Shown piece by piece: positions 11,675 to 64,000 of a DNA stretch of 64,000 nt. The notes under the pieces are model-generated. The model saw nothing but the letters and a program-made list of their open reading frames with translations. It was not told the DNA's origin and ran no database searches. Source of the stretch: an uncultured Gammaproteobacteria bacterium (lineage in GTDB: Bacteria > Patescibacteriota > Microgenomatia > UBA8517); contig CAZWNZ010000001.1 of NCBI GenBank assembly GCA_964635715.1, forward strand, positions 10,358 to 74,357, written 5' to 3'. Position 1 is the stretch's first letter. Each line of letters starts with the position of its first letter. The position numbers were made by a program, and so were the translations under genes.

Positions 11675-12664
11675 CTAAATTGCAACAATGATGGTTGAAA
11701 TCACAATGAGAAGAACAACCGGAATTGTTTTTTTGATATTTTTATAGAATATTAGCCAAAAAATAGGCACAATTGGTGCTAAATACCTGCCTAAATTTTC
11801 CAAAAAAGGAACAAGATTGATACCAAGCGTAAAAATATAAAAAGCAGTAATAATCCAAAATTCCAAGCCACGGGATTTGAGAGCCTTCCAATATAAACAA
11901 ATATAAAAAGTAATGTAAAAAAAACCCGATAGCAAAATTCTGTACCAATGCCACCTTGCAGCTCTTATAAGATCGTAGAAAAGCTGTCCCATCCCAAAGC
12001 TAATTCTTGAAGGATGCAGCGCCTCGTAAGTAAAGAGCTGATAAAAAGGATTTTTTATTCCGAAAAAATACACGTTATAGATCACTAAAAGCACAACCGG
12101 AATCAAAAAATATGGTAGGTTAAGAACAGCCTTTTTAATTTTTTTTGTCATGATCATATAAAACACCATGCCAGCAAATATGGCTATTCCTGCAATTCTG
12201 AAAGTAACCGAGATACCCAAGACCAGAAACGCCCAACGAAATAAATCTTTTTTATAGAAATAAATTGCAAGAAGCATCAAAAATACAAAAGGCATCTCGG
12301 TATCAATTAGGGAAGACAAATTGAGTAATATCGGTGGAAAAATTAGTGGCAAAAAACTATATTTTGAACCCGTTAATTTATAGAGCAAAACATAGGATCC
12401 GATTAAAGACAATATTACAACTACATAACCTGCCAGAAATGAATTTCCTGTTATAAAATGAAGCAAATAAATGACAATTGGAAGCCCGGGCAAAAGGCGC
12501 GATTCAAAAAATGAAATTTTTCCAACATTTAAAGGAAGTGTCTCCGAATAACCAACATAGTTATCTTGCTGAACAATCCCATTATTAAATCTAATAAATG
12601 CCAAAAACACCGATATTATTACGCAAAGAATAAACAATTTATGTTTGTATATTTTTGTAAGCAT
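11675..12664 (-). CDS. polytopic membrane protein, putative glycosyltransferase/polymerase (GT-C, EpsG or Wzy-like fold); inserted between rpsJ and rplC
   Basis: About 10 predicted TM helices; aromatic and Pro-rich loops (FESRLLPGLPIVIY...). No soluble domain. Adjacent to a sugar-nucleotide epimerase. Confidence 0.35.
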   Translation of the reverse strand: MLTKIYKHKLFILCVIISVFLAFIRFNNGIVQQDNYVGYSETLPLNVGKISFFESRLLPGLPIVIYLLHFITGNSFLAGYVVVILSLIGSYVLLYKLTGSKYSFLPLIFPPILLNLSSLIDTEMPFVFLMLLAIYFYKKDLFRWAFLVLGISVTFRIAGIAIFAGMVFYMIMTKKIKKAVLNLPYFLIPVVLLVIYNVYFFGIKNPFYQLFTYEALHPSRISFGMGQLFYDLIRAARWHWYRILLSGFFYITFYICLYWKALKSRGLEFWIITAFYIFTLGINLVPFLENLGRYLAPIVPIFWLIFYKNIKKTIPVVLLIVISTIIVAI

Positions 12665-12690
12665 TCGGAAGTATTATACTCTGAAACAAC

Positions 12691-13566
12691 ATGATACTTG
12701 TCACCGGTTCTTCTGGATTTATCGGCAGTAAACTTTTACCCCTTATTAGAAAGAAATATCCAAAAGAAGTTGTTACGGTTTTGAACAAAAATAATTGCAA
12801 TTTAGTAACCGGTCGGGGGCTATCGAAGCTTTCGGGAAAACCAAAAATAGTCTTTCATCTTGCTGCAACAACTGACACATCCAAAAGAGATCAGAGATGT
12901 AACGATATTGGAACCAAAAACCTTTTGAAGGCACTTCCAAGCCTCGGTCCAAAAACGCATTTTATATATACAAGCTCTCAAGTTGTATATTCGGGGAGAA
13001 GCGACACCGGAAAATTAATCACTTCAAAAACAGCTACTGCCACGAATAACAAGTACGGCAAAACTAAACTCATGGCAGAAAAAATTCTTCTTAGGGCCGC
13101 TAAAGAAAAAGGATTCAAACTGACGATAATAAGACTTCCAACTGTTTGGGGAGAAAATCCCAGAAAAAATGCTTTTTTGAATTTTTTGAGAAAACTTACT
13201 AAAAAGAATTCTATATTTTCAAGATTTGACTGGCCGGGCAAAGTTGCTCTTGTCTATGTTGAGGACGCAGTAAAATATATACTTAAGGCGGGGGAAATGC
13301 ATCCACAAACCATTTCTATAGCCGTAGAAAATCTAACTCTTGCCCAAATTTTTGAAAAAAATTACATAAATCAAGGTAAAATTTATAAGCAAATTAAGGT
13401 TCCGAACTTTGTTTGGAGCTTAGCTAGATTCTTAAGACCGTATTTAAAATATTTTGAATTTATTCTTCCAACAAGTCTTTTTAATTATCTTTGGAGAACA
13501 TCAATAATTGTGGATAGTCCCCTTGCCTGCAAGGTAAACATAAAAGGTAAAAAATTTGCCGGATAA
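12691..13566 (+). CDS. NAD-dependent epimerase/dehydratase (extended SDR family)
   Basis: N-terminal Rossmann motif MILVTGSSGFIGSKL; about 290 aa, typical of UDP-sugar epimerases and dehydratases. Confidence 0.7.
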   Translation: MILVTGSSGFIGSKLLPLIRKKYPKEVVTVLNKNNCNLVTGRGLSKLSGKPKIVFHLAATTDTSKRDQRCNDIGTKNLLKALPSLGPKTHFIYTSSQVVYSGRSDTGKLITSKTATATNNKYGKTKLMAEKILLRAAKEKGFKLTIIRLPTVWGENPRKNAFLNFLRKLTKKNSIFSRFDWPGKVALVYVEDAVKYILKAGEMHPQTISIAVENLTLAQIFEKNYINQGKIYKQIKVPNFVWSLARFLRPYLKYFEFILPTSLFNYLWRTSIIVDSPLACKVNIKGKKFAG

Positions 13567-30121: not shown

Positions 30122-30811
30122 CTAGTCTTCGGGTGGAACCACCCTTGCCCTCACAATAAGTCTTTTCGGATATCTGGGGTCTCCCGGAGGTATGCAGGTT
30201 ACAAGAGTTATAAAAGAATCGCTGGAATCCTGATCCAGCACTTGCAAATCGGTCGGTGCAACCTCAAACATCTCTTCCACTTTGTAGGTGTATGATACGC
30301 CGTCATAATCGACGAACACAAAATCTCCGACCTTCATTGTCGGCAGCATTGTAAAAATAGAGATATAATTTTTCGGATTATTGAAAATCGGCAAAATTGA
30401 ATGACCGAATATAACAGCATTGCCGCGTTTTCCCGGAAGAGCTGTTCCCGGATATTGAATGAGGCTTTTGCTCAAATCTTCTCCGCCTATTGCCACTGTT
30501 GCCGATTCTATCTTGAGTTTTGGTATTGAGAGTGTGTAATAAGACACTTTTTCTGCGGTGAAATCCTCTACTGTTGCTCCGTTGGTAAACCAGCTGCTGG
30601 CCATGGTATCTTCTGTTCCTATGCCTGTCGATTCCGTCATAACTTTTTGTATCTGACCCTCCGAGTCGGCCAGCGGAGAAATTAGCTTGGTATAATTTTT
30701 CGAATATGTAGCATCATAGCTGACAATCGGATAAATCACCCCTATTAAAATGACTATTCCTGAAATACCTGAAATTAAAGCTGATATGCGCAATATTGTC
30801 TTTTGTTTCAT
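30122..30811 (-). CDS. sortase-family transpeptidase
   Basis: N-terminal TM; catalytic triad context IFGHS ... TLVTC ... RLIVRA. Confidence 0.7.
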   Translation of the reverse strand: MKQKTILRISALISGISGIVILIGVIYPIVSYDATYSKNYTKLISPLADSEGQIQKVMTESTGIGTEDTMASSWFTNGATVEDFTAEKVSYYTLSIPKLKIESATVAIGGEDLSKSLIQYPGTALPGKRGNAVIFGHSILPIFNNPKNYISIFTMLPTMKVGDFVFVDYDGVSYTYKVEEMFEVAPTDLQVLDQDSSDSFITLVTCIPPGDPRYPKRLIVRARVVPPED

Positions 30812-56577: not shown

Positions 56578-57108
56578 ATGCCCAAAAATAAAGCAATCAA
56601 TTTACTGCCTTTAGAGGAGTTTAACGCTTCAACCACCGGCCGTGTTCTAAAATGGGCGACAGGAACTTTCCGTGTGATTGTAATTATCACTGAAATGGTT
56701 GTTATGGGAGCTTTTTTGTCACGGTTCTGGCTGGATGCCCAAAATTCAACTCTAAACAACGCAATAAAAGCAAAAAGTGCCCAAATTTCCGCACAAACTG
56801 ATTTAGAGCAGCGTTTCAGAAACACTCAATTAAAACTGAATGTATTTAAACAAATTGATCAAAGTAATAATTTATCTTCTTATGTTGACAACATTACCAG
56901 CAAGGTTCCTGAAAATATCACTTTATCAAAAATATCCATTGAGAAAGAGGCTATATCTATTACGGGTTCGTCTTTATCGGATTATGATATCGCGGTATTT
57001 ATAGCCAGTCTGCAAAATCCACCATTTAAAGAGGCTGTTTTAAGTCAGGTGGGTTCATCTGAAAACAATCCCGGAGAAACCAATTTTACAGTGAGCGCGA
57101 TTTATTAA
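56578..57108 (+). CDS. pilN: type IV pilus assembly protein PilN-like
   Basis: INLLP signature at residues 7-11, TM, coiled-coil, C-terminal ferredoxin-like periplasmic region. Confidence 0.65.
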   Translation: MPKNKAINLLPLEEFNASTTGRVLKWATGTFRVIVIITEMVVMGAFLSRFWLDAQNSTLNNAIKAKSAQISAQTDLEQRFRNTQLKLNVFKQIDQSNNLSSYVDNITSKVPENITLSKISIEKEAISITGSSLSDYDIAVFIASLQNPPFKEAVLSQVGSSENNPGETNFTVSAIY

Positions 57109-57112
57109 TACT

Positions 57113-57772
57113 ATGGCATCAGGTTGGAGATCATCATATTACCGATATAAACAACTGTTTCTAAATGTTTCTGCCACTTATAAAAAGAGGTCGGATCTTC
57201 GTGCGTTTTTGGAAATAGTTTTGTCGTTAATTGCAGTAATCATTTTCGTAGTTTTTGCATTAAAACCTACCGCCTTAACCATTATTAGTCTTGTCCAACA
57301 GATAAAAGAAGAGAAAAAGGTTCTAACCTCACTCAACCAAAAGGTCAGTGACTTGCAAAAAGCATCCACTCTTTTAACCCAAAATCAAATGTTTTTGGAT
57401 AACATTAATCTTGCCATCTCCACTACACCAAGTCCTGATATATTTGCAAAACAAATATTGGGAATGTCTGCCAAAAATAATGTTGAGCTGATGGCTTTAT
57501 CCATTAACGAAGTTGTTATAATTGGGAACACAAAAAAGATAGTTTCCAAAGAAACAGAACCATTGCCTGAGAATGCTAACGAAATTGGATACTCGATCAG
57601 TATAAAAGGCGGTTTTGCCAATATAAACACATTTTTAAAAGATATTGAAAATCTCAGAACAATATCGAAAATAGACAGCCTCACAATTAGCTCTTCCATA
57701 AGTGACTCTGGAAGGGTTATAGTGGCTGTAATTTCAGGTAGAATTCCTTATTTGGAACAAGTCAAAAAATGA
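57113..57772 (+). CDS. pilO: type IV pilus assembly protein PilO-like
   Basis: Short cytoplasmic N-terminus, TM (LEIVLSLIAVIIFVVFAL), coiled-coil, C-terminal domain; follows pilN with a 4-nt gap. Confidence 0.55.
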   Translation: MASGWRSSYYRYKQLFLNVSATYKKRSDLRAFLEIVLSLIAVIIFVVFALKPTALTIISLVQQIKEEKKVLTSLNQKVSDLQKASTLLTQNQMFLDNINLAISTTPSPDIFAKQILGMSAKNNVELMALSINEVVIIGNTKKIVSKETEPLPENANEIGYSISIKGGFANINTFLKDIENLRTISKIDSLTISSSISDSGRVIVAVISGRIPYLEQVKK

Positions 57773-58137
57773 AAAAAAATCGTCTCCCCAAACCAATAAC
57801 CATACTAATATTGACACTTTTAACTGCAGTACTTTGGGTAGGTTTAAATATATATAGAACTTTTACAATTAAGCCGGATGCTCCTGTTCCTGAAAGTGTA
57901 TCCAATCCTTTGAATCCGGTACTCAACACTGAAGTCATTCAGCAAATAGAATCCGCTATTTACATTCCCGATTCTGAAATTCCACAAATTGGTACAAACA
58001 TTCAAATAACAGCGACACCCCTGCCTGTGCTGACCGAGGAGGAAATGACCGAAGCTGAAACAGGATCCGAAACTGAATCAACCGAAAGCGGATCTTTTCA
58101 GGCAACTGAAGATGAAACAACAACCGAAGAAAAATGA
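57769..58137 (+). CDS. small signal-anchored protein with acidic Glu/Thr-rich tail
   Basis: TM ITILILTLLTAVLWVGL; C-terminus EEEMTEAETGSETESTESGSFQATEDETTTEEK. 4-nt overlaps with both neighbouring genes. Confidence 0.4.
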   Translation: MKKNRLPKPITILILTLLTAVLWVGLNIYRTFTIKPDAPVPESVSNPLNPVLNTEVIQQIESAIYIPDSEIPQIGTNIQITATPLPVLTEEEMTEAETGSETESTESGSFQATEDETTTEEK

Positions 58138-59507
58138 TAAAGAAAAAAAATATACCAACAATACTTGGAATACTGCTTCTTTTGGGTGGCGTATTTACCG
58201 GTGTGATTCTTCTTAAGAACAATCAACTGTTCAGAATAGGTGCAAGTTCCACAGCAGCTCCCAAGGATGTAAGAGTCAGTAGTGTTTCTGATTCCACAGC
58301 TACCATTACTTGGGTCACCGGAGAACCCACATCGGCTTTTATTTCTTATGGTACCGATGAAAATACCGGAACCGTTATTAATGAGACAGAAAATGACCAA
58401 AAATATACCACTCACAGTATCACTATTACAGGTCTTTCTGCCAGTTCCACCTATTACTTAAAAATAAACTCTAACGGCACAACATTTGACAACAATGGGG
58501 TTCCTTGGCAATTTATTACAGGTGAAAATCTACCTCTAAGCCAGAAGTCGATTCCGATATCTGGATCCGTTATCTCCGCGTCAGGAACATCCATGAAAAG
58601 GGCAATTGTTTACATAACTATAAACGGTTATGTGATTTCAACAATGACCTCAGAAAATGGAACTTTTGTTTTACAAATCGGATCCGCCAGAACTCCCGAT
58701 CTTTCCGCTTATGCAGATATTGATCTTGAGAAAACCCTTCTGGAAATTTCGGTTACGGCGGAGACCGGAGAAACTGCAATTGCAAAAATCTTTTCTCAAT
58801 CCGCAAACCCAATTCCTGCATTAATAATTGGCCAAGATCAAGATTTCAGAAATTTGGAACCTTTATCCAACGGTTTAAATCCAGATGCCAATCTTAGCCT
58901 TCCTGAAAGTGCGACGGCTGAGTCTAAACTTGATGTCAGTCAATCCGAAACTATTTCTACAACAACCCTAACCTTGGACAGTATTACTGAAGGAGAGGTA
59001 ATCACCAGCAATCAACCTCAACTTTTCGGGGATGGGCCAAAAGGAACCGAGATTACAATTACTATTCACTCCGACACGGAAATTTCAGGATCGGCAGTTG
59101 TTTCATCAAGTGGCCTGTGGAATTGGTCGCTTCCAACCGATCTTTCTCCCGGTGCTCACACAATTACTATTTCCTGGATCGACTCACTAGGCATTGCCAG
59201 AACTCTAACCAGAAATTTTATCGTCCAAGCCGGTGAATTGCCTGCATTTGAAGCATCACCATCAGGCACTCCTACGACGACGCCAAAACCAAGTCAAACT
59301 CCTTCCCCCACACCAATTCCAAGTGCGACAAAAACTCCCTTAGCTACCAAAAGCCCAACCCCAAAGCCGACTGCTATTCCAACCACAACTCCGGAATCTT
59401 TACCTGAATCTGGAATCTTGACTCCGACTCTTCTACTATCTATGATGGGGATAGGCGTAATAACCTTTGCTTTTTATATTTGGAAAAAATCAGAAGATGA
59501 GTCCTAA
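58134..59507 (+). CDS. cell-surface protein: signal anchor, fibronectin type III-like domain, Pro/Thr-rich stalk, C-terminal LPESG sorting signal
   Basis: FN3-like APKDVRVSSVSDSTATITWVTGEPTSAFISYG...YYLKINS. C-terminus TPESLPESGILTPTLLLSMMGIGVITFAFYIWKKSEDES (LPxxG + hydrophobic + charged tail). Confidence 0.65.
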   Translation: MIKKKNIPTILGILLLLGGVFTGVILLKNNQLFRIGASSTAAPKDVRVSSVSDSTATITWVTGEPTSAFISYGTDENTGTVINETENDQKYTTHSITITGLSASSTYYLKINSNGTTFDNNGVPWQFITGENLPLSQKSIPISGSVISASGTSMKRAIVYITINGYVISTMTSENGTFVLQIGSARTPDLSAYADIDLEKTLLEISVTAETGETAIAKIFSQSANPIPALIIGQDQDFRNLEPLSNGLNPDANLSLPESATAESKLDVSQSETISTTTLTLDSITEGEVITSNQPQLFGDGPKGTEITITIHSDTEISGSAVVSSSGLWNWSLPTDLSPGAHTITISWIDSLGIARTLTRNFIVQAGELPAFEASPSGTPTTTPKPSQTPSPTPIPSATKTPLATKSPTPKPTAIPTTTPESLPESGILTPTLLLSMMGIGVITFAFYIWKKSEDES

Positions 59508-59542
59508 ATTGAATCTAGAATTATAAATTACTAATAATATCC

Positions 59543-60820
59543 ATGCCCAACCAAGATCCAACAAACAACAATCCTCCCCAAGAGAATACCCCGGTAAATC
59601 CTGTAAGTTCGGTCTCTTTTTCACCTCAGGCAGATTTACCGCCATTACCGCCGGAATTCCAAAATCTGGAAGGCAGTCAAGTTAATCCACCAACCGCCAA
59701 CTCAACGTCGTCATCCGATCCTACAGGAGATTCTGGTTCTGCAGCGCCGCCGCCAGCTTTTGCAAATATTGCCCCTGCTCCAAAGAAAAAGTTTGGAACC
59801 AAAAAAATAATTGCCACGATTTTAGGAATAATCGGGCTTGTGGGAGCGGTCGGAGCAGGAACATATCTTGTTGGACAAAAACAACTATTTCAACAAAAAG
59901 CCGACACACTATATGAATGTTCAAATGCTTACTGTGTAAGGTGTACTTGCGGATGTACATCATCCAATGCAGATTGCAGTGGACCAACTAATTGTAACCC
60001 CGATTGTCCAACCGCCACTCCAGTTTCAACGGACAGGCCTAATACATGCGAAGAAAATGGTTTTACATGTAAAACACCTGGCGGTGATGGTCATTGTCCA
60101 ACAGGGTCATATGATCGATCTGGAACATGTGCTAATGGTGTGTGTTGTTATACTCCATCCGACCCAGAACCCACATCCAGAACAGGATGGGGAATCGGAG
60201 AAGCTTGCACTAATACATCAGGAACGGGAACTCAGTGTGTTCTTGCTATTTGCCCATATGGGTGTGAAGGTAGTTGTGATTCTAACGATCCGGGTGTTAC
60301 TTTGAAATATGGAAATTGTGAGACACTTGCAAGTGAAGTGCTGAGTACTTGTGGCCAAGTTGATTTAGTTAATTCTTCAGGTGTTTATTGTGATGTTGAT
60401 CCATCGGATGGTATAGATGCTCAAATAACATGTCCTCAACCCAGATGTGCTGTTGATGATACACCTACGAGTGAGCCTAAATCTTCACCAACCCCAACTC
60501 CCACCACCGCTGCACCCTACTGCGCTGCCGTAAAAGCTTACGATACAGAATGGGAAGTACTTTCCTCAACCGACTTGACATCTCTATCAGAAGGATCTGT
60601 TGTTAACTTCTGTGTATCGGGTCTTCCATTATCCAATTCTTTCGACAAAGCTCAATTTACTATCAACGGTGTTAAACAAACTGAGACCTCTGTAAACAGA
60701 CCTCAATCGGCAGAGACAACTTATTACAACGAGTTCTGTCAGTCTTATACAATACCAAGCGGAACAACAACGTTTACTGTCACGGGTCAGATTCACCACT
60801 CTACGCTCGGGTGGTTTTAA
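59543..60820 (+). CDS. membrane-anchored protein: Pro-rich cytoplasmic N-terminus, one TM, large Cys-rich extracellular domain
   Basis: TM IIATILGIIGLVGAVGAGTYLV; more than 40 Cys in CxxC/CC clusters (CSNAYCVRCTCGCTSSNADCSGPTNCNPDCPT...). Confidence 0.5.
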   Translation: MPNQDPTNNNPPQENTPVNPVSSVSFSPQADLPPLPPEFQNLEGSQVNPPTANSTSSSDPTGDSGSAAPPPAFANIAPAPKKKFGTKKIIATILGIIGLVGAVGAGTYLVGQKQLFQQKADTLYECSNAYCVRCTCGCTSSNADCSGPTNCNPDCPTATPVSTDRPNTCEENGFTCKTPGGDGHCPTGSYDRSGTCANGVCCYTPSDPEPTSRTGWGIGEACTNTSGTGTQCVLAICPYGCEGSCDSNDPGVTLKYGNCETLASEVLSTCGQVDLVNSSGVYCDVDPSDGIDAQITCPQPRCAVDDTPTSEPKSSPTPTPTTAAPYCAAVKAYDTEWEVLSSTDLTSLSEGSVVNFCVSGLPLSNSFDKAQFTINGVKQTETSVNRPQSAETTYYNEFCQSYTIPSGTTTFTVTGQIHHSTLGWF

Positions 60821-60826
60821 AAATAT

Positions 60827-61423
60827 ATGAAAAAACCTGTTAGCAAAATCGGAACAATTTTAATAATAATAGCCACAGTCATTCTGGCTGGAATTGCGAT
60901 TTTTACAGCCTACAGATTGTATCAACTTAGACAAACCTCTGTCGCACCTAATGTTCCCAGCAGCATGCCAAAGGCTGAAGAATCAACTGCAAGCCCTGCT
61001 CCCACTAGCAATTGTTCCCTATCGTTTACCATATCGACATCCACTCCTACCACTACAGCCACAGCTACAGCTACTGCAACAGCCACAGCAACTGCGACGG
61101 CTACAGCTACTGCAACAGCCACGCCAACTTCATCCGGTACTCCGAACTCTTGCGGTGGAACTTGTGGAAGTAATACTAATTGTGGATCAGGTCTTTACTG
61201 TTATAACGGTTACTGTCGTAATCCATCGTGTTCTAATGAAATAGATTGTGTCTGTCCGACAGGCACCTCTACGGCCACAGCAACTGCGACAGCAAAAAGT
61301 TCCACCCCAACTTCTACACCTGAAGAAGTCACTCTTCCCGAGTCAGGTACAGGCTGGACGACTTTCATGGGTATCGGAGTCGGAATGTTGGTTGTTCTAG
61401 GATCAATTCTTTTAGCTCTCTAA
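60827..61423 (+). CDS. cell-surface protein with (Thr-Ala)n repeat, small Cys-knot module and C-terminal LPESG sorting signal
   Basis: TTATATATATATATATATATATATPT; CGGTCGSNTNCGSGLYCYNGYCRNPSCSNEIDCVCP; C-terminus EEVTLPESGTGWTTFMGIGVGMLVVLGSILLAL. Confidence 0.65.
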   Translation: MKKPVSKIGTILIIIATVILAGIAIFTAYRLYQLRQTSVAPNVPSSMPKAEESTASPAPTSNCSLSFTISTSTPTTTATATATATATATATATATATATPTSSGTPNSCGGTCGSNTNCGSGLYCYNGYCRNPSCSNEIDCVCPTGTSTATATATAKSSTPTSTPEEVTLPESGTGWTTFMGIGVGMLVVLGSILLAL

Positions 61424-61430
61424 TTTCATT

Positions 61431-61718
61431 GTGAATAAAATTACAAACTTTCTGAAACCAGGCATCGAATTTGCCAAAACAAATTTAGATACCATTATCG
61501 TTGTTCTTATCTCAGTCGGAATTTTCTTTCTTGGATACTATGTTACTGTTTATTCACTAGGAAAGCTGAAACCAAAGATCGTTTCTTATTATCCTTTTGA
61601 TAAATTTTTCCCAAAATCTGGGCGTTGGTCCGTGATGTATTTTTTAATTACAGTTCTTCTTTTGGGAGCTCTGGTTTATATAATTATAAAGGGAGGCTTC
61701 TATCTAGCACCGGCTTAA
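61431..61718 (+). CDS. small two-TM membrane protein
   Basis: Two hydrophobic helices (IIVVLISVGIFFLGYYV; VMYFLITVLLLGALVYIII). Confidence 0.35.
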   Translation: MNKITNFLKPGIEFAKTNLDTIIVVLISVGIFFLGYYVTVYSLGKLKPKIVSYYPFDKFFPKSGRWSVMYFLITVLLLGALVYIIIKGGFYLAPA

Positions 61719-61720
61719 AA

Positions 61721-64000
61721 TTATCTCCAGCTTGCTACCCAGTAGTAACTTTTGTCTAACCAAAGTGGAACTTGGAGTCCTGCCCAGTGTGGATAAAAAT
61801 AAATAAATGACAAAATGCAAATAGGCACAACGAAATACATTGCCTTTGGAAATCGTCTTAGTAAATAACCTATTGCAATACTCATAAATGGTATCGAGGG
61901 AAGATAGTGATAGAAAAACATTATCCTGGGAGATGCTGCCCACGGAGCAAAAAATATTAAATAACTAAATACCACAAAACCAAGCCTTTTATTTTTTTCA
62001 AGATAGGAAAAAACCGCACACAAGCAAATTGAGGCAATCCCAATCCAAAAAACAAAGGGATTACCCATTGCATATATTCGGGAAACCACCCCTCCGATTT
62101 CACTACTTGTGTAAAGATAAATTGGTCGAATCAAAAACGGCCAGGTCCACCATGAAGATGTGTAAGGATGTGTGGCTTCTAAGCCTGTGTGATACCACCA
62201 TATTTGCTTCTGCATGCCCCACCATATAGTCAAATTGTGCCCTGTTGTAAACATCGGTAAGTAGGATAAAAGGTAAATGATAAAAGGTAAAAGTAAAAAC
62301 CAAAGAATTGAGGGATTAAACTTATTTTTTCTTTTAAGCCATAGAACAAAAATTATCGGAGCCGCCCAAAGAGCTGACCACTTGGAAGAAAGTGCCAAAC
62401 CATAAAAAATAGCCGAAAAAAGATCTTTTTGTTTCATGAACATATAGATCGACAGGAGAGAAAAGAAAAGAATGTAGCTATCATTCATACCTATTCTATT
62501 CATAACCAAGGGAAGTCCGTCCAGCGAAAAAACTCCGGCAGAAATAAGACCAACAGTCTCATCTTTAAATATTTTCTTTGCTATTAAATAGATCAAATAA
62601 ACCGACCCTACACCCAAAATGGCGCCCGGGATTCTCCAACCAAATGAATTTTGGCCAAAAATGCTCATTCCAAGAACCATTCCAAGTTTTGCCAATGGCG
62701 GGTGTGTCCACTCATAAGCAAAGCCCTCAGGAGGAGTATTCCACCACTCCCAAGCCTTGGCAGAATCTTCTCCCATCATTGTTACTGCGGTAAAAGCATG
62801 ATAGACCTCGTCAAAATACATTTCCGTAGGACTCCCCAAGTTAAACACACGGACGGCAAAGGCGAAGGCTAAAATCACATAAAGAATGTACTTGGATTTA
62901 ATTTTCGAAAGTTTGATTTCAGGTAAATTGGAAATGTCCTGTGTTCGATCTTCTTTTCTAGAACCTGAAAAAAAGCGATTAATATGTAACCGCATTTTCT
63001 TCCAACCGATCTTGTAATTTTTAAAGATAACAATAAACATATATACCAAAAGTCCCACACCAACTACTTCGATAAATTTGACCAGAAGCTCAGGATAAAC
63101 TTCTACAAAATCATTAACAATCCATTGATAGGAATAAATAAGATTTAACAAATAAATTACTGAATAGCCGGCATAAGGAATAATAAATAAAGGATTTTCG
63201 ATCGTCAAAATTGCCAGAGGCGCAAATACAGGCAAGAGATGTCTTTCATGCATCCTGGTAAAAAACATAAAACTTGCCGCAAACACAAAGGCTATTAGAC
63301 TATAATAATTGATCTTGGTTTTAAATTTTTTAATTATTAAAAGTGCCGTCATTGCCAAAACAAAAATATAACCTCCGAATTGAAAATAAATATTATCCGG
63401 CTTCCAAAAACCAAAAAGTCCCCAGAAATTAAAAGAGTTTACTGAAGTATAAGGATATTGCCCCGCAGAAAGATTTAGGCGGCTAAGTATAAATGGAATT
63501 AAGTCTCCCTTAGCAAAAGGCACAAATCCCAAAATAAACAGAGCCATCCCCACAAAAACATACTGAATCATTTTTGCAAAACTCCATTTATTCTTAATCA
63601 TCATTAACACAATAATAGGCAAAATAAACGCTGCCTGAGGCTTTATTAAAGTTCCAACAGAAAGAATAATTGCAGATAAAATAAAATTACTATTCAGGAA
63701 ATATACTACAGCGACGGATGCAAGTGCGGTTAAAGAGTCTACTTGCCCCCAAAGTGAAGAATTTATAAAAACCGCCGGATTAAAAATATAGATTAAAGAT
63801 CCGATAAATCCCCATTTTTGGTTTTTATTTTTTGCTAAAATTTTATATATCAAATAACCCGTCAAAAGGTCTGCAAAAATTGCCGGTAATTTATAAAGCA
63901 TAACTTGCGGAATAATTCCTAACAGATTCACTTTTTCTAACAACCGAAGAATATATAAATATCCGGGTAGGTAATCGCACCAGGAACTGTAGAAATTTTT
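61721..64000 (-). CDS. very large polytopic membrane glycosyltransferase: N-terminal GT-C-like module fused to a C-terminal PMT/GT39-like module; 5' end beyond window
   Basis: C-terminal half carries PMT-family motifs MYFDEVYHAFTA ... EWTHPPLAKL. More than 20 TM helices. Reading frame stays open to position 64000. Confidence 0.55.
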   Translation of the reverse strand, partial: KNFYSSWCDYLPGYLYILRLLEKVNLLGIIPQVMLYKLPAIFADLLTGYLIYKILAKNKNQKWGFIGSLIYIFNPAVFINSSLWGQVDSLTALASVAVVYFLNSNFILSAIILSVGTLIKPQAAFILPIIVLMMIKNKWSFAKMIQYVFVGMALFILGFVPFAKGDLIPFILSRLNLSAGQYPYTSVNSFNFWGLFGFWKPDNIYFQFGGYIFVLAMTALLIIKKFKTKINYYSLIAFVFAASFMFFTRMHERHLLPVFAPLAILTIENPLFIIPYAGYSVIYLLNLIYSYQWIVNDFVEVYPELLVKFIEVVGVGLLVYMFIVIFKNYKIGWKKMRLHINRFFSGSRKEDRTQDISNLPEIKLSKIKSKYILYVILAFAFAVRVFNLGSPTEMYFDEVYHAFTAVTMMGEDSAKAWEWWNTPPEGFAYEWTHPPLAKLGMVLGMSIFGQNSFGWRIPGAILGVGSVYLIYLIAKKIFKDETVGLISAGVFSLDGLPLVMNRIGMNDSYILFFSLLSIYMFMKQKDLFSAIFYGLALSSKWSALWAAPIIFVLWLKRKNKFNPSILWFLLLPFIIYLLSYLPMFTTGHNLTIWWGMQKQIWWYHTGLEATHPYTSSWWTWPFLIRPIYLYTSSEIGGVVSRIYAMGNPFVFWIGIASICLCAVFSYLEKNKRLGFVVFSYLIFFAPWAASPRIMFFYHYLPSIPFMSIAIGYLLRRFPKAMYFVVPICILSFIYFYPHWAGLQVPLWLDKSYYWVASWR

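Follow-up and report, generated by a model that had tools for sequence, protein, structure and literature searches.

To our knowledge, protein O-mannosylation in bacteria has been demonstrated experimentally solely in Actinobacteria, and the roles of the GT87-type partners of Pmt in these organisms are just now being worked out. In mycobacteria, Pmt starts O-mannose chains on Sec substrates with polyprenyl-phosphate-mannose as donor and the GT87 enzyme PimE extends them (PMC12757957). GT39 enzymes that are fused to a GT87-family enzyme occur in Paenibacillus (UniProt V9WAU2); a preprint of July 2026 mentions this fusion and cites it for a predicted heterodimer of mycobacterial Pmt and the catalytically inactive, GT87-like protein ML2687c (bioRxiv 10.64898/2026.07.15.738315). 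Here we report on a gene at the end of a 64-kb stretch of DNA (64,000 nucleotides of contig CAZWNZ010000001.1, in the following called the window) that combines two such enzymes in one polypeptide, an N-terminal membrane glycosyltransferase of the GT-C superfamily and a C-terminal protein O-mannosyltransferase (PMT) module of family GT39, and that adjoins a cluster of genes for Ser/Thr/Pro-rich surface proteins.

The fused gene and its two modules

The open reading frame (ORF) is read from the minus strand and ends in TAA (reverse complement of 61721-61723). It is open across all 760 codons as far as base 64000 and the N terminus therefore lies outside the window: the first 56 codons are found past base 64000, and the first residue inside is K57. 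The full-length protein (P0001, 815 aa) is present in public assemblies, is 100% identical to the window ORF and already carries an automatic annotation as GT39. The original prediction, made from the window alone, of a membrane ORF with two glycosyltransferase modules that runs off the window is borne out by the open frame and the exact full-length protein, although "giant", as it was called there, does not fit a length of 815 aa. According to sequence and structural model, the fused GT-C::GT39 protein is a real membrane enzyme, one polypeptide with 23 membrane helices and two complete, lipid-sugar-dependent GT-C glycosyltransferases. Its features are as follows (residue numbers are those of P0001).

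61721..64000, minus strand: fused GT-C::GT39 ORF, aa 57-815 of 815-aa P0001 plus stop codon
63020..64000, minus strand: N-terminal GT-C module, aa 57-383 in the window; whole module aa 1-383, 12 transmembrane helices; D40 is off-window
63959..63976, minus strand: DYLPGY motif, aa 65-70, in extracytoplasmic loop 1; aligns with ALG6 DYPP
63737..63751, minus strand: WGQVD motif, aa 140-144, at the outer end of transmembrane helices 3 and 4 (TM3/TM4); W140, G141, Q142 and D144 invariant
63239..63250, minus strand: HERH motif, aa 307-310; H307, E308 and R309 invariant; aligns with ALG6 HEK
62906..63019, minus strand: K/R-rich cytoplasmic linker, aa 384-421, with a mean of 10.9 K+R residues; gene boundary in lineages with split genes
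61724..62905, minus strand: C-terminal GT39/PMT module (by Pfam, alignment and Foldseek), aa 422-815, 11 transmembrane helices, no MIR domain
62807..62812, minus strand: DE motif D453-E454, first extracytoplasmic loop of the PMT module; invariant; aligns with the DE of C. thermophilum Pmt4
62684..62704, minus strand: HPPLAKL motif, aa 489-495; H489, P490, P491, K494 and L495 invariant

Sequence and model assign the C-terminal module to the GT39 protein O-mannosyltransferases, and the corresponding activity is predicted; all characterised GT39 enzymes known to us act on Ser/Thr residues of proteins. In Pfam searches the window fragment matched PMT (PF02366; aa 376-578 of the fragment, E 2.4e-12) with 47.4 bits versus a cut-off of 22.7, PMT_4TMC (PF16192, E 8.9e-17) with 61.7 bits versus 32.4, and PMT_2 with E 1.4e-13. 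Pmt4 from C. thermophilum and Pmt1 from yeast align with the module around its DE motif and over its final four helices. The AlphaFold2 model of the full-length protein had a pLDDT of 83.7 and a pTM of 0.65, the latter being uninformative when taken alone. A Foldseek search with it returned Pmt4 (9i5k; E 4.9e-9, TMt 0.64) as top match, followed by yeast Pmt1, Pmt2 and Pmt4, and ArnT, AftA and Emb ranked below these PMT structures. The motifs that had been read as hallmarks of the family, DEVYHAFTA (aa 453-461) and HPPLAKL, are invariant across 76 full-length homologues with 58-84% identity and are therefore no chance matches, so that this reading is now backed by motifs, family models and fold alike. 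Neither Pfam nor the full-length model gave a match to a MIR domain, and the loop after TM7 (aa 635-703) is short. A MIR domain in this loop is confined to the eukaryotic subfamilies. Actinobacterial Pmt proteins are also devoid of MIR domains (bioRxiv 10.64898/2026.07.15.738315).

The N-terminal part had been taken for a second GT-C-like module of ~330 aa; the polytopic GT-C module is confirmed but comprises ~383 aa. It is a genuine domain, and homologues of 370-450 aa occur as proteins of their own. Modelled by itself it gave 12 helices with a pLDDT of 95.9 and a pTM of 0.93, and Foldseek matched it to ALG6, PIG-U, Gpi14, ALG3 and PimE at TM-scores of 0.61-0.67 (PimE, 0.63). A profile of its family found the sequences of glycosylphosphatidylinositol (GPI) mannosyltransferase I (GPI-MT-I, E 8e-12) and ALG6 (E 8e-9). 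An alignment of 67 homologues with 25-55% identity revealed Y66, P68, Y70, K93, W140, G141, Q142, D144, K176, H307, E308 and R309 as invariant and D40, D65 and D100 as near-invariant (≥90%); all these residues, including the three aspartates, are invariant in the 76 fusion proteins. When aligned to ALG6, D40 pairs with the Asp of GDFEAQRHW, which we take to be D69 in the yeast numbering, DYLPGY pairs with DYPP and HERH with HEK. This Asp is the catalytic base of ALG6 (PMC12653191) and the structural equivalent of D58 in PimE (PMC12041525). The conservation of outward-facing polar residues leads us to predict that the module is active, and it looks catalytically competent with D40 as the predicted catalytic Asp. 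Among the 67 homologues, Pfam assigned 37 to GT87 (best E 2.9e-10), 21 to PMT_2, eight to PIG-U and six to Alg6_Alg8; judged by sequence and model, the description that suits the module best is that of an ALG6/GT87-type GT-C enzyme captured by none of the curated models. The profile built from its homologues finds, in addition, the PMT module of P0001 itself (E 9e-12; aa 430-730 of the window ORF); the two modules are distant paralogues within the GT-C superfamily.

Topology was derived from the helices of the model together with hydropathy, helix order and the positive-inside rule, not from a dedicated predictor. Twelve helices of the N-module and eleven of the PMT module are joined by the linker (aa 384-421), in which the pLDDT drops below 50 at aa 403-413. 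The density of K+R per residue is 0.25 in the cytoplasmic segments versus 0.063 outside (n = 76 sequences), a fourfold bias. In the modelled arrangement D40, DYLPGY, WGQVD, HERH, D453-E454 and HPPLAKL face outward, and with them both active-site loops. Two relatives, P0055 (881 aa) and P0090 (890 aa), contain a LysM insert in loop 1 of the PMT module, directly after HPPLAKL. A peptidoglycan-binding LysM insert fits only outside the cell, which independently supports an extracytoplasmic DE loop. A cytoplasmic location of the motif was checked and is contradicted by the K/R bias and the LysM insert, in agreement with the first extracytoplasmic loop proposed at the outset. The LysM insertion in these two relatives also suggests that the enzyme works near the wall.

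Host lineage and descent of the fusion

The named homologues are from Candidatus Woesebacteria and Microgenomates and the GC content of the host DNA is ~0.38. By its sequence the host is assigned to the Patescibacteria, or candidate phyla radiation (CPR), as an uncultivated, ultra-small member of the Woesebacteria. An actinobacterial origin was considered and rejected on account of these homologues, and the actinobacterial frame in which the gene had been seen was given up. Many of the related loci (L006, L010, L024, L027 and ~25 others) bear the record title "uncultured Gammaproteobacteria bacterium"; they have the fusion at 45-71% identity in the same synteny, and the labels look wrong.

A scan of species-representative genomes yielded 297 relatives, of which the best 80 were examined for architecture. 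Wherever the contig permits (three are cut by contig ends), the homologues in these 80 span both modules, down to 39% identity, and fusion plus synteny are kept down to 43% identity. From these comparisons, the fusion and its neighbourhood are conserved vertically in at least 80 species representatives. Horizontal acquisition, as implied when the gene was called a glycan-related "acquisition", was rejected, since the GC content of the fusion region (0.36) is inside the range of the window (0.34-0.43) and synteny is retained to the identity given above.

Three lineages, Curtissbacteria, Blackburnbacteria and one other, encode the modules in separate genes in the same order, which overlap by 20-22 nt or stand 12 nt apart. 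The split genes are collinear with aa 15-384 (38% identity) and aa 431-815 (40% identity) of P0001. Because the modules have remained adjacent separate genes in these sister lineages of the Microgenomates, the sequences indicate that the Woesebacteria gene arose by fusion of a translationally coupled, adjacent gene pair. In Curtissbacteria the split pair is followed on its 3' side by a gene for a GT2 enzyme with two C-terminal helices that resembles GtrB/DPM1. A homology search places it in the broad family of polyisoprenyl-phosphate glycosyltransferases, and by sequence it would be the expected kind of donor synthase; the homology search with this GT2 revealed no counterpart in Woesebacteria. 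The literature was also searched for reports of PMT in Patescibacteria/CPR, and none of relevance came up.

Two further polytopic membrane proteins are encoded directly upstream, past base 64000 (L001, 3-1788, on the strand opposite to the enzyme gene). The first (318 aa) belongs to no Pfam family and is a conserved neighbour of the fusion gene, seen in 56 of 80 loci. The second matches PMT_2 with E 1.6e-6; the contig ends within it, and its length is at least 283 aa. In relatives, the same upstream place is taken by a PMT_2 protein of 495-529 aa, an LCP ligase and FemAB. Because of these proteins the locus would qualify, on sequence grounds, as a multi-GT-C envelope island.

The neighbouring surface proteins

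A plus-strand cluster (56578-61718) faces the fusion gene. It encodes a PilN-like, a PilO-like and a small bitopic protein, three exported proteins and, as the last, a 95-aa protein with two helices. The cluster and two other loci of the window that are discussed below comprise the following features.

56578..58137, plus strand: PilN-like protein (176 aa; PilN, E 8.7e-9), PilO-like protein (219 aa; weak PilO match) and bitopic, acidic/Thr-rich protein (122 aa)
58134..59507, plus strand: candidate substrate, 457 aa, with FN3-like and Ig-like domains, Pro/Thr stalk, LPESG, transmembrane helix and KK
59543..60820, plus strand: candidate substrate, 425 aa, membrane-anchored, Cys-rich, with Pro/Thr/Ser-rich segments
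60827..61423, plus strand: candidate substrate, 198 aa, with (TA)n run, Cys-rich knot, Thr-rich stalk, LPESG and transmembrane helix
30122..30811, minus strand: sortase (Pfam Sortase, E 3.6e-25)
11675-13566 (rpsJ-rplC insertion): NAD-dependent epimerase/dehydratase, 291 aa (PF01370, E 3.8e-25), and membrane protein, 329 aa

The three exported proteins are the only ones in the window that reach 50% Ser/Thr/Pro over 40 residues, with up to 72% in the 457-aa protein (Pfam Pur_ac_phosph_N and Big_13), up to 50% in the 425-aa protein and up to 65% in the 198-aa protein, which has no basic tail after its transmembrane helix. The (TA)n and PT-rich stalks and the LPESG motifs that had been noticed in these neighbours are indeed present in the sequences. 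With motif, hydrophobic helix and a sortase in the same window, the LPESG proteins fit sortase substrates, and the sortase at 30122-30811 is the likely processing enzyme for the LPESG signals.

The neighbourhood was counted in 59 related loci with at least 7.5 kb of downstream flank. Genes for the PilN-like, PilO-like and FN3 proteins were found downstream in 59/59 and the gene for the 122-aa protein in 52/59; orthologues of the 457-, 425- and 198-aa proteins were present in 59, 51 and 49 of the 59 loci, respectively. Ser/Thr/Pro-rich ORFs amount to 124 of 430 downstream versus 1 of 299 upstream, an enrichment of ~120-fold (Fisher p 5e-31). A protein with C-terminal LPx[S/A]G and transmembrane helix is encoded downstream in 54 of 63 loci. 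Hence the co-occurrence with Thr-rich LPESG proteins, which had been suggested as a check, holds in the relatives, and adjacency to the cluster is seen in two of the split-gene lineages as well. The commonest forms of the anchor in the orthologues are LPQSG and LPEAG, that is, LPx[S/A]G instead of LPXTG. The six-gene module at 56578-61423 is conserved, with no PilM, pilin or ATPase gene adjoining, and may stand for a surface structure of another kind than type IV pili.

The fusion gene is not part of the operon of the surface proteins. The genes are convergent, in 58 of the 59 loci with one inverted, and the stop codons TAA at 61716-61718 and 61721-61723 are separated by 2 bp, which leaves no room for separate terminators.

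A second glycan-related site had been seen in the rpsJ-rplC insertion. The epimerase listed above is real, but the "GT-like" label for the membrane protein next to it (329 aa) is unsupported and was dropped: no Pfam model, PDB chain or N-module/GT-C profile matched this protein.

Proposed function and relation to known systems

We see an even chance that the PMT module starts O-glycans, the N-module extends them, the neighbouring stalk proteins are the preferred substrates and anchoring by sortase follows. Proteins emerging from the Sec translocon would receive a hexose, likeliest mannose, on Ser/Thr residues of their stalks; it would be moved from a polyprenyl-phosphate carrier by the PMT module at the invariant D453-E454 loop. 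The N-module, with D40 as catalytic base, would then add the next hexose from a polyprenyl-phosphate-linked donor, comparable to PimE in mycobacteria. The fusion would hold both modules together as a permanent pseudo-heterodimer, comparable to Pmt1-Pmt2, and the glycosylated proteins would finally be joined to the wall by sortase. Such an order of start and extension on one polypeptide is favoured because both active sites are retained and because the protein originated by fusion of an operonic pair. That glycosylation is dedicated to the neighbouring proteins is what we infer.

Fusion and overlapping split genes suit, equally well, a physical complex in which the PMT module alone is catalytic on proteins and the N-module serves mainly as a permanent dimer partner or as a scaffold that gives the acceptor groove its shape. 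This role is likened to that of Pmt2 in the yeast Pmt1-Pmt2 structure and to the predicted one of inactive ML2687c with mycobacterial Pmt; the preprint predicts a Pmt/GT87-like heterodimer whose partner is without catalytic residues and uses the Paenibacillus fusion as support for obligate dimerisation (bioRxiv 10.64898/2026.07.15.738315). We consider it unlikely, though to be taken seriously. Pseudo-enzymes normally lose residues such as D40, DYxPxY, WGQxD, KP and HER, whereas the N-module keeps them at 25-55% identity, and the large number of its standalone homologues (3607 cluster representatives at E ≤ 1e-30) implies that these are active by themselves.

The acceptor may also be a different one. 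The LCP ligase, FemAB and additional PMT_2-type GT-C proteins that lie upstream in relatives, with MurJ beyond the cluster, would be in line with modules that make or modify a glycolipid or an envelope polymer other than protein, for instance a lipoglycan or a glycan linked to the wall, and with an adjacency that reflects nothing but conserved gene order; PimE itself works on glycolipids (PMC12041525), the fusion gene is convergent with the surface-protein cluster, and the cut-off of the Pmt equivalog model (see below) is unmet. However, PF02366 and PF16192, which are specific for PMTs, are both above their cut-offs, PMTs are the best structural matches, before ArnT, AftA and Emb, the GT39 enzymes known to us act on proteins, and the sole Ser/Thr/Pro-rich proteins in the window are the three beside the gene. 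A polymer or glycolipid as product therefore appears rather improbable to us. Hardly better are the prospects of a protein O-glycosylation system whose main substrates, for example pilins or other exported proteins, are encoded elsewhere. The actinobacterial Pmt indeed has many Sec substrates that are dispersed over the genome (PMC12757957), and the split pair of Curtissbacteria does not adjoin the cluster, but adjacency in 59/59 Woesebacteria loci and in two split-gene lineages, and the ~120-fold enrichment of Ser/Thr/Pro-rich ORFs downstream versus upstream, argue for substrates next to the gene.

Several observations speak against an enzyme that starts and extends O-glycans on its neighbours. 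With regard to the modules, NCBIfam equivalog NF058602 (actinobacterial Pmt) gave 59.1 bits, far below its cut-off of 800, so that the C-terminal module is a GT39 family member and not an orthologue of the mycobacterial enzyme. The N-module of P0001 has no Pfam match of its own even at E ≤ 10. No PimE chain was matched at E ≤ 10 by the family profile or by the GT87-annotated member P0219, which is why residues were mapped via ALG6, and the label "GT87-like" would rest on the fold and on the family members (37/67). In mycobacteria, the GT87-like protein that partners Pmt has been described as inactive, a precedent for a purely structural role. A donor synthase of the GtrB/DPM1 type was found neither among the 69 ORFs of the window nor within 10 kb of the gene in 80 loci. 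With regard to the neighbourhood, fusion gene and cluster are convergent and not co-transcribed, and in Curtissbacteria the split pair is located away from the cluster. In these small genomes synteny covers everything between dnaK and uvrD, and the loci share a common descent; adjacency to the cluster may reflect inherited gene order and not a functional link.

A wider claim is that Woesebacteria and related Microgenomates possess a self-contained, two-active-site, single-polypeptide machine for O-glycosylation, in which the GT39 site would start O-linked hexoses on sortase-anchored, Ser/Thr/Pro-rich surface proteins and the fused ALG6/GT87-like site would extend them. Protein O-mannosylation would then occur, for the first time, outside Actinobacteria and eukaryotes, and the fusion would be natural Rosetta-stone evidence for a general physical pairing of GT39 with GT87-type enzymes. 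We put this claim forward tentatively and would rather doubt than assert it in full. The locus is not a new kind of system, since the GT39 annotation exists and the Paenibacillus fusion has been mentioned already. A very small CPR genome nevertheless keeps both types of enzyme, fused or as overlapping genes, beside plausible substrates, and this comparison independently supports a coupling of GT39 and GT87 that is physical as well as functional. It also leads to the prediction that surface proteins of these uncultivated episymbionts are O-glycosylated, and one gene plus a short stalk reporter would make a compact construct for testing it.

In mycobacteria, the MIR-less GT39 enzyme Pmt (Rv1002c) acts first, on Ser/Thr-rich regions of Sec-exported proteins, and PimE (GT87), a second GT-C enzyme with GT87/ALG6 fold, lengthens the chain (PMC12757957); the locus has the same types of module, and the order of action proposed for them is the same. 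The differences are that two proteins are used in mycobacteria and one polypeptide, or overlapping genes in the sister lineages, here, that the host is a CPR bacterium, and that the N-module is without a sequence match to mycobacterial PimE and the PMT module below the cut-off for Pmt. The eukaryotic Pmt1-Pmt2 and Pmt4 dimers (PDB 6P25, 9I5K) share with it the GT39 fold, the DE in loop 1, the C-terminal four-helix region and the pairing of two GT-C proteins; they have, however, a MIR domain after TM7, which is missing here, and the partner here is from another GT-C family and covalently fused. The dolichyl-phosphate-hexose-dependent enzymes ALG6 (GT57) and Gpi14/PIG-M (GT50) are the best profile and fold matches of the N-module. 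ALG6 and the N-module have in common a catalytic Asp where the first outward helix begins, DYxP and HE(K/R), but ALG6 has 14 helices versus 12 in the N-module, and ALG6 and Gpi14 act on lipid-linked oligosaccharides or GPI in the endoplasmic reticulum and are only 14-17% identical to it.

The order of N-module and then PMT is also found in Paenibacillus, in a metagenome-assembled genome of the Clostridiales (P0325) and in a Methanocellales archaeon (P0300). The profile of the N-module matches P0354 from Paenibacillus sp. HJGM_3 with E 8.7e-91, and the C terminus of P0354 consists of PMT and PMT_4TMC. Other arrangements were seen among the library hits (P0354, P0300, P0308, P0255, P0247 and P0267 have varied architectures): the N-module stands at the C terminus of some proteins, tandem double N-modules occur (P0255, Alg6_Alg8-like plus GT87-like), and a 1271-aa protein likewise has an F5/8 type C domain between N-module and PMT module. 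The fusions from Paenibacillus, Clostridiales and Methanocellales differ from the one described here in their length of 980-1040 aa and, in P0354 and P0300, in an F5/8 type C (discoidin) domain between the modules, which was not detected in P0325, whereas the Woesebacteria form has just a cytoplasmic linker of 38 aa. Finally, mycobacterial ML2687c is reported to be without catalytic residues, whereas the N-module of Woesebacteria keeps them.

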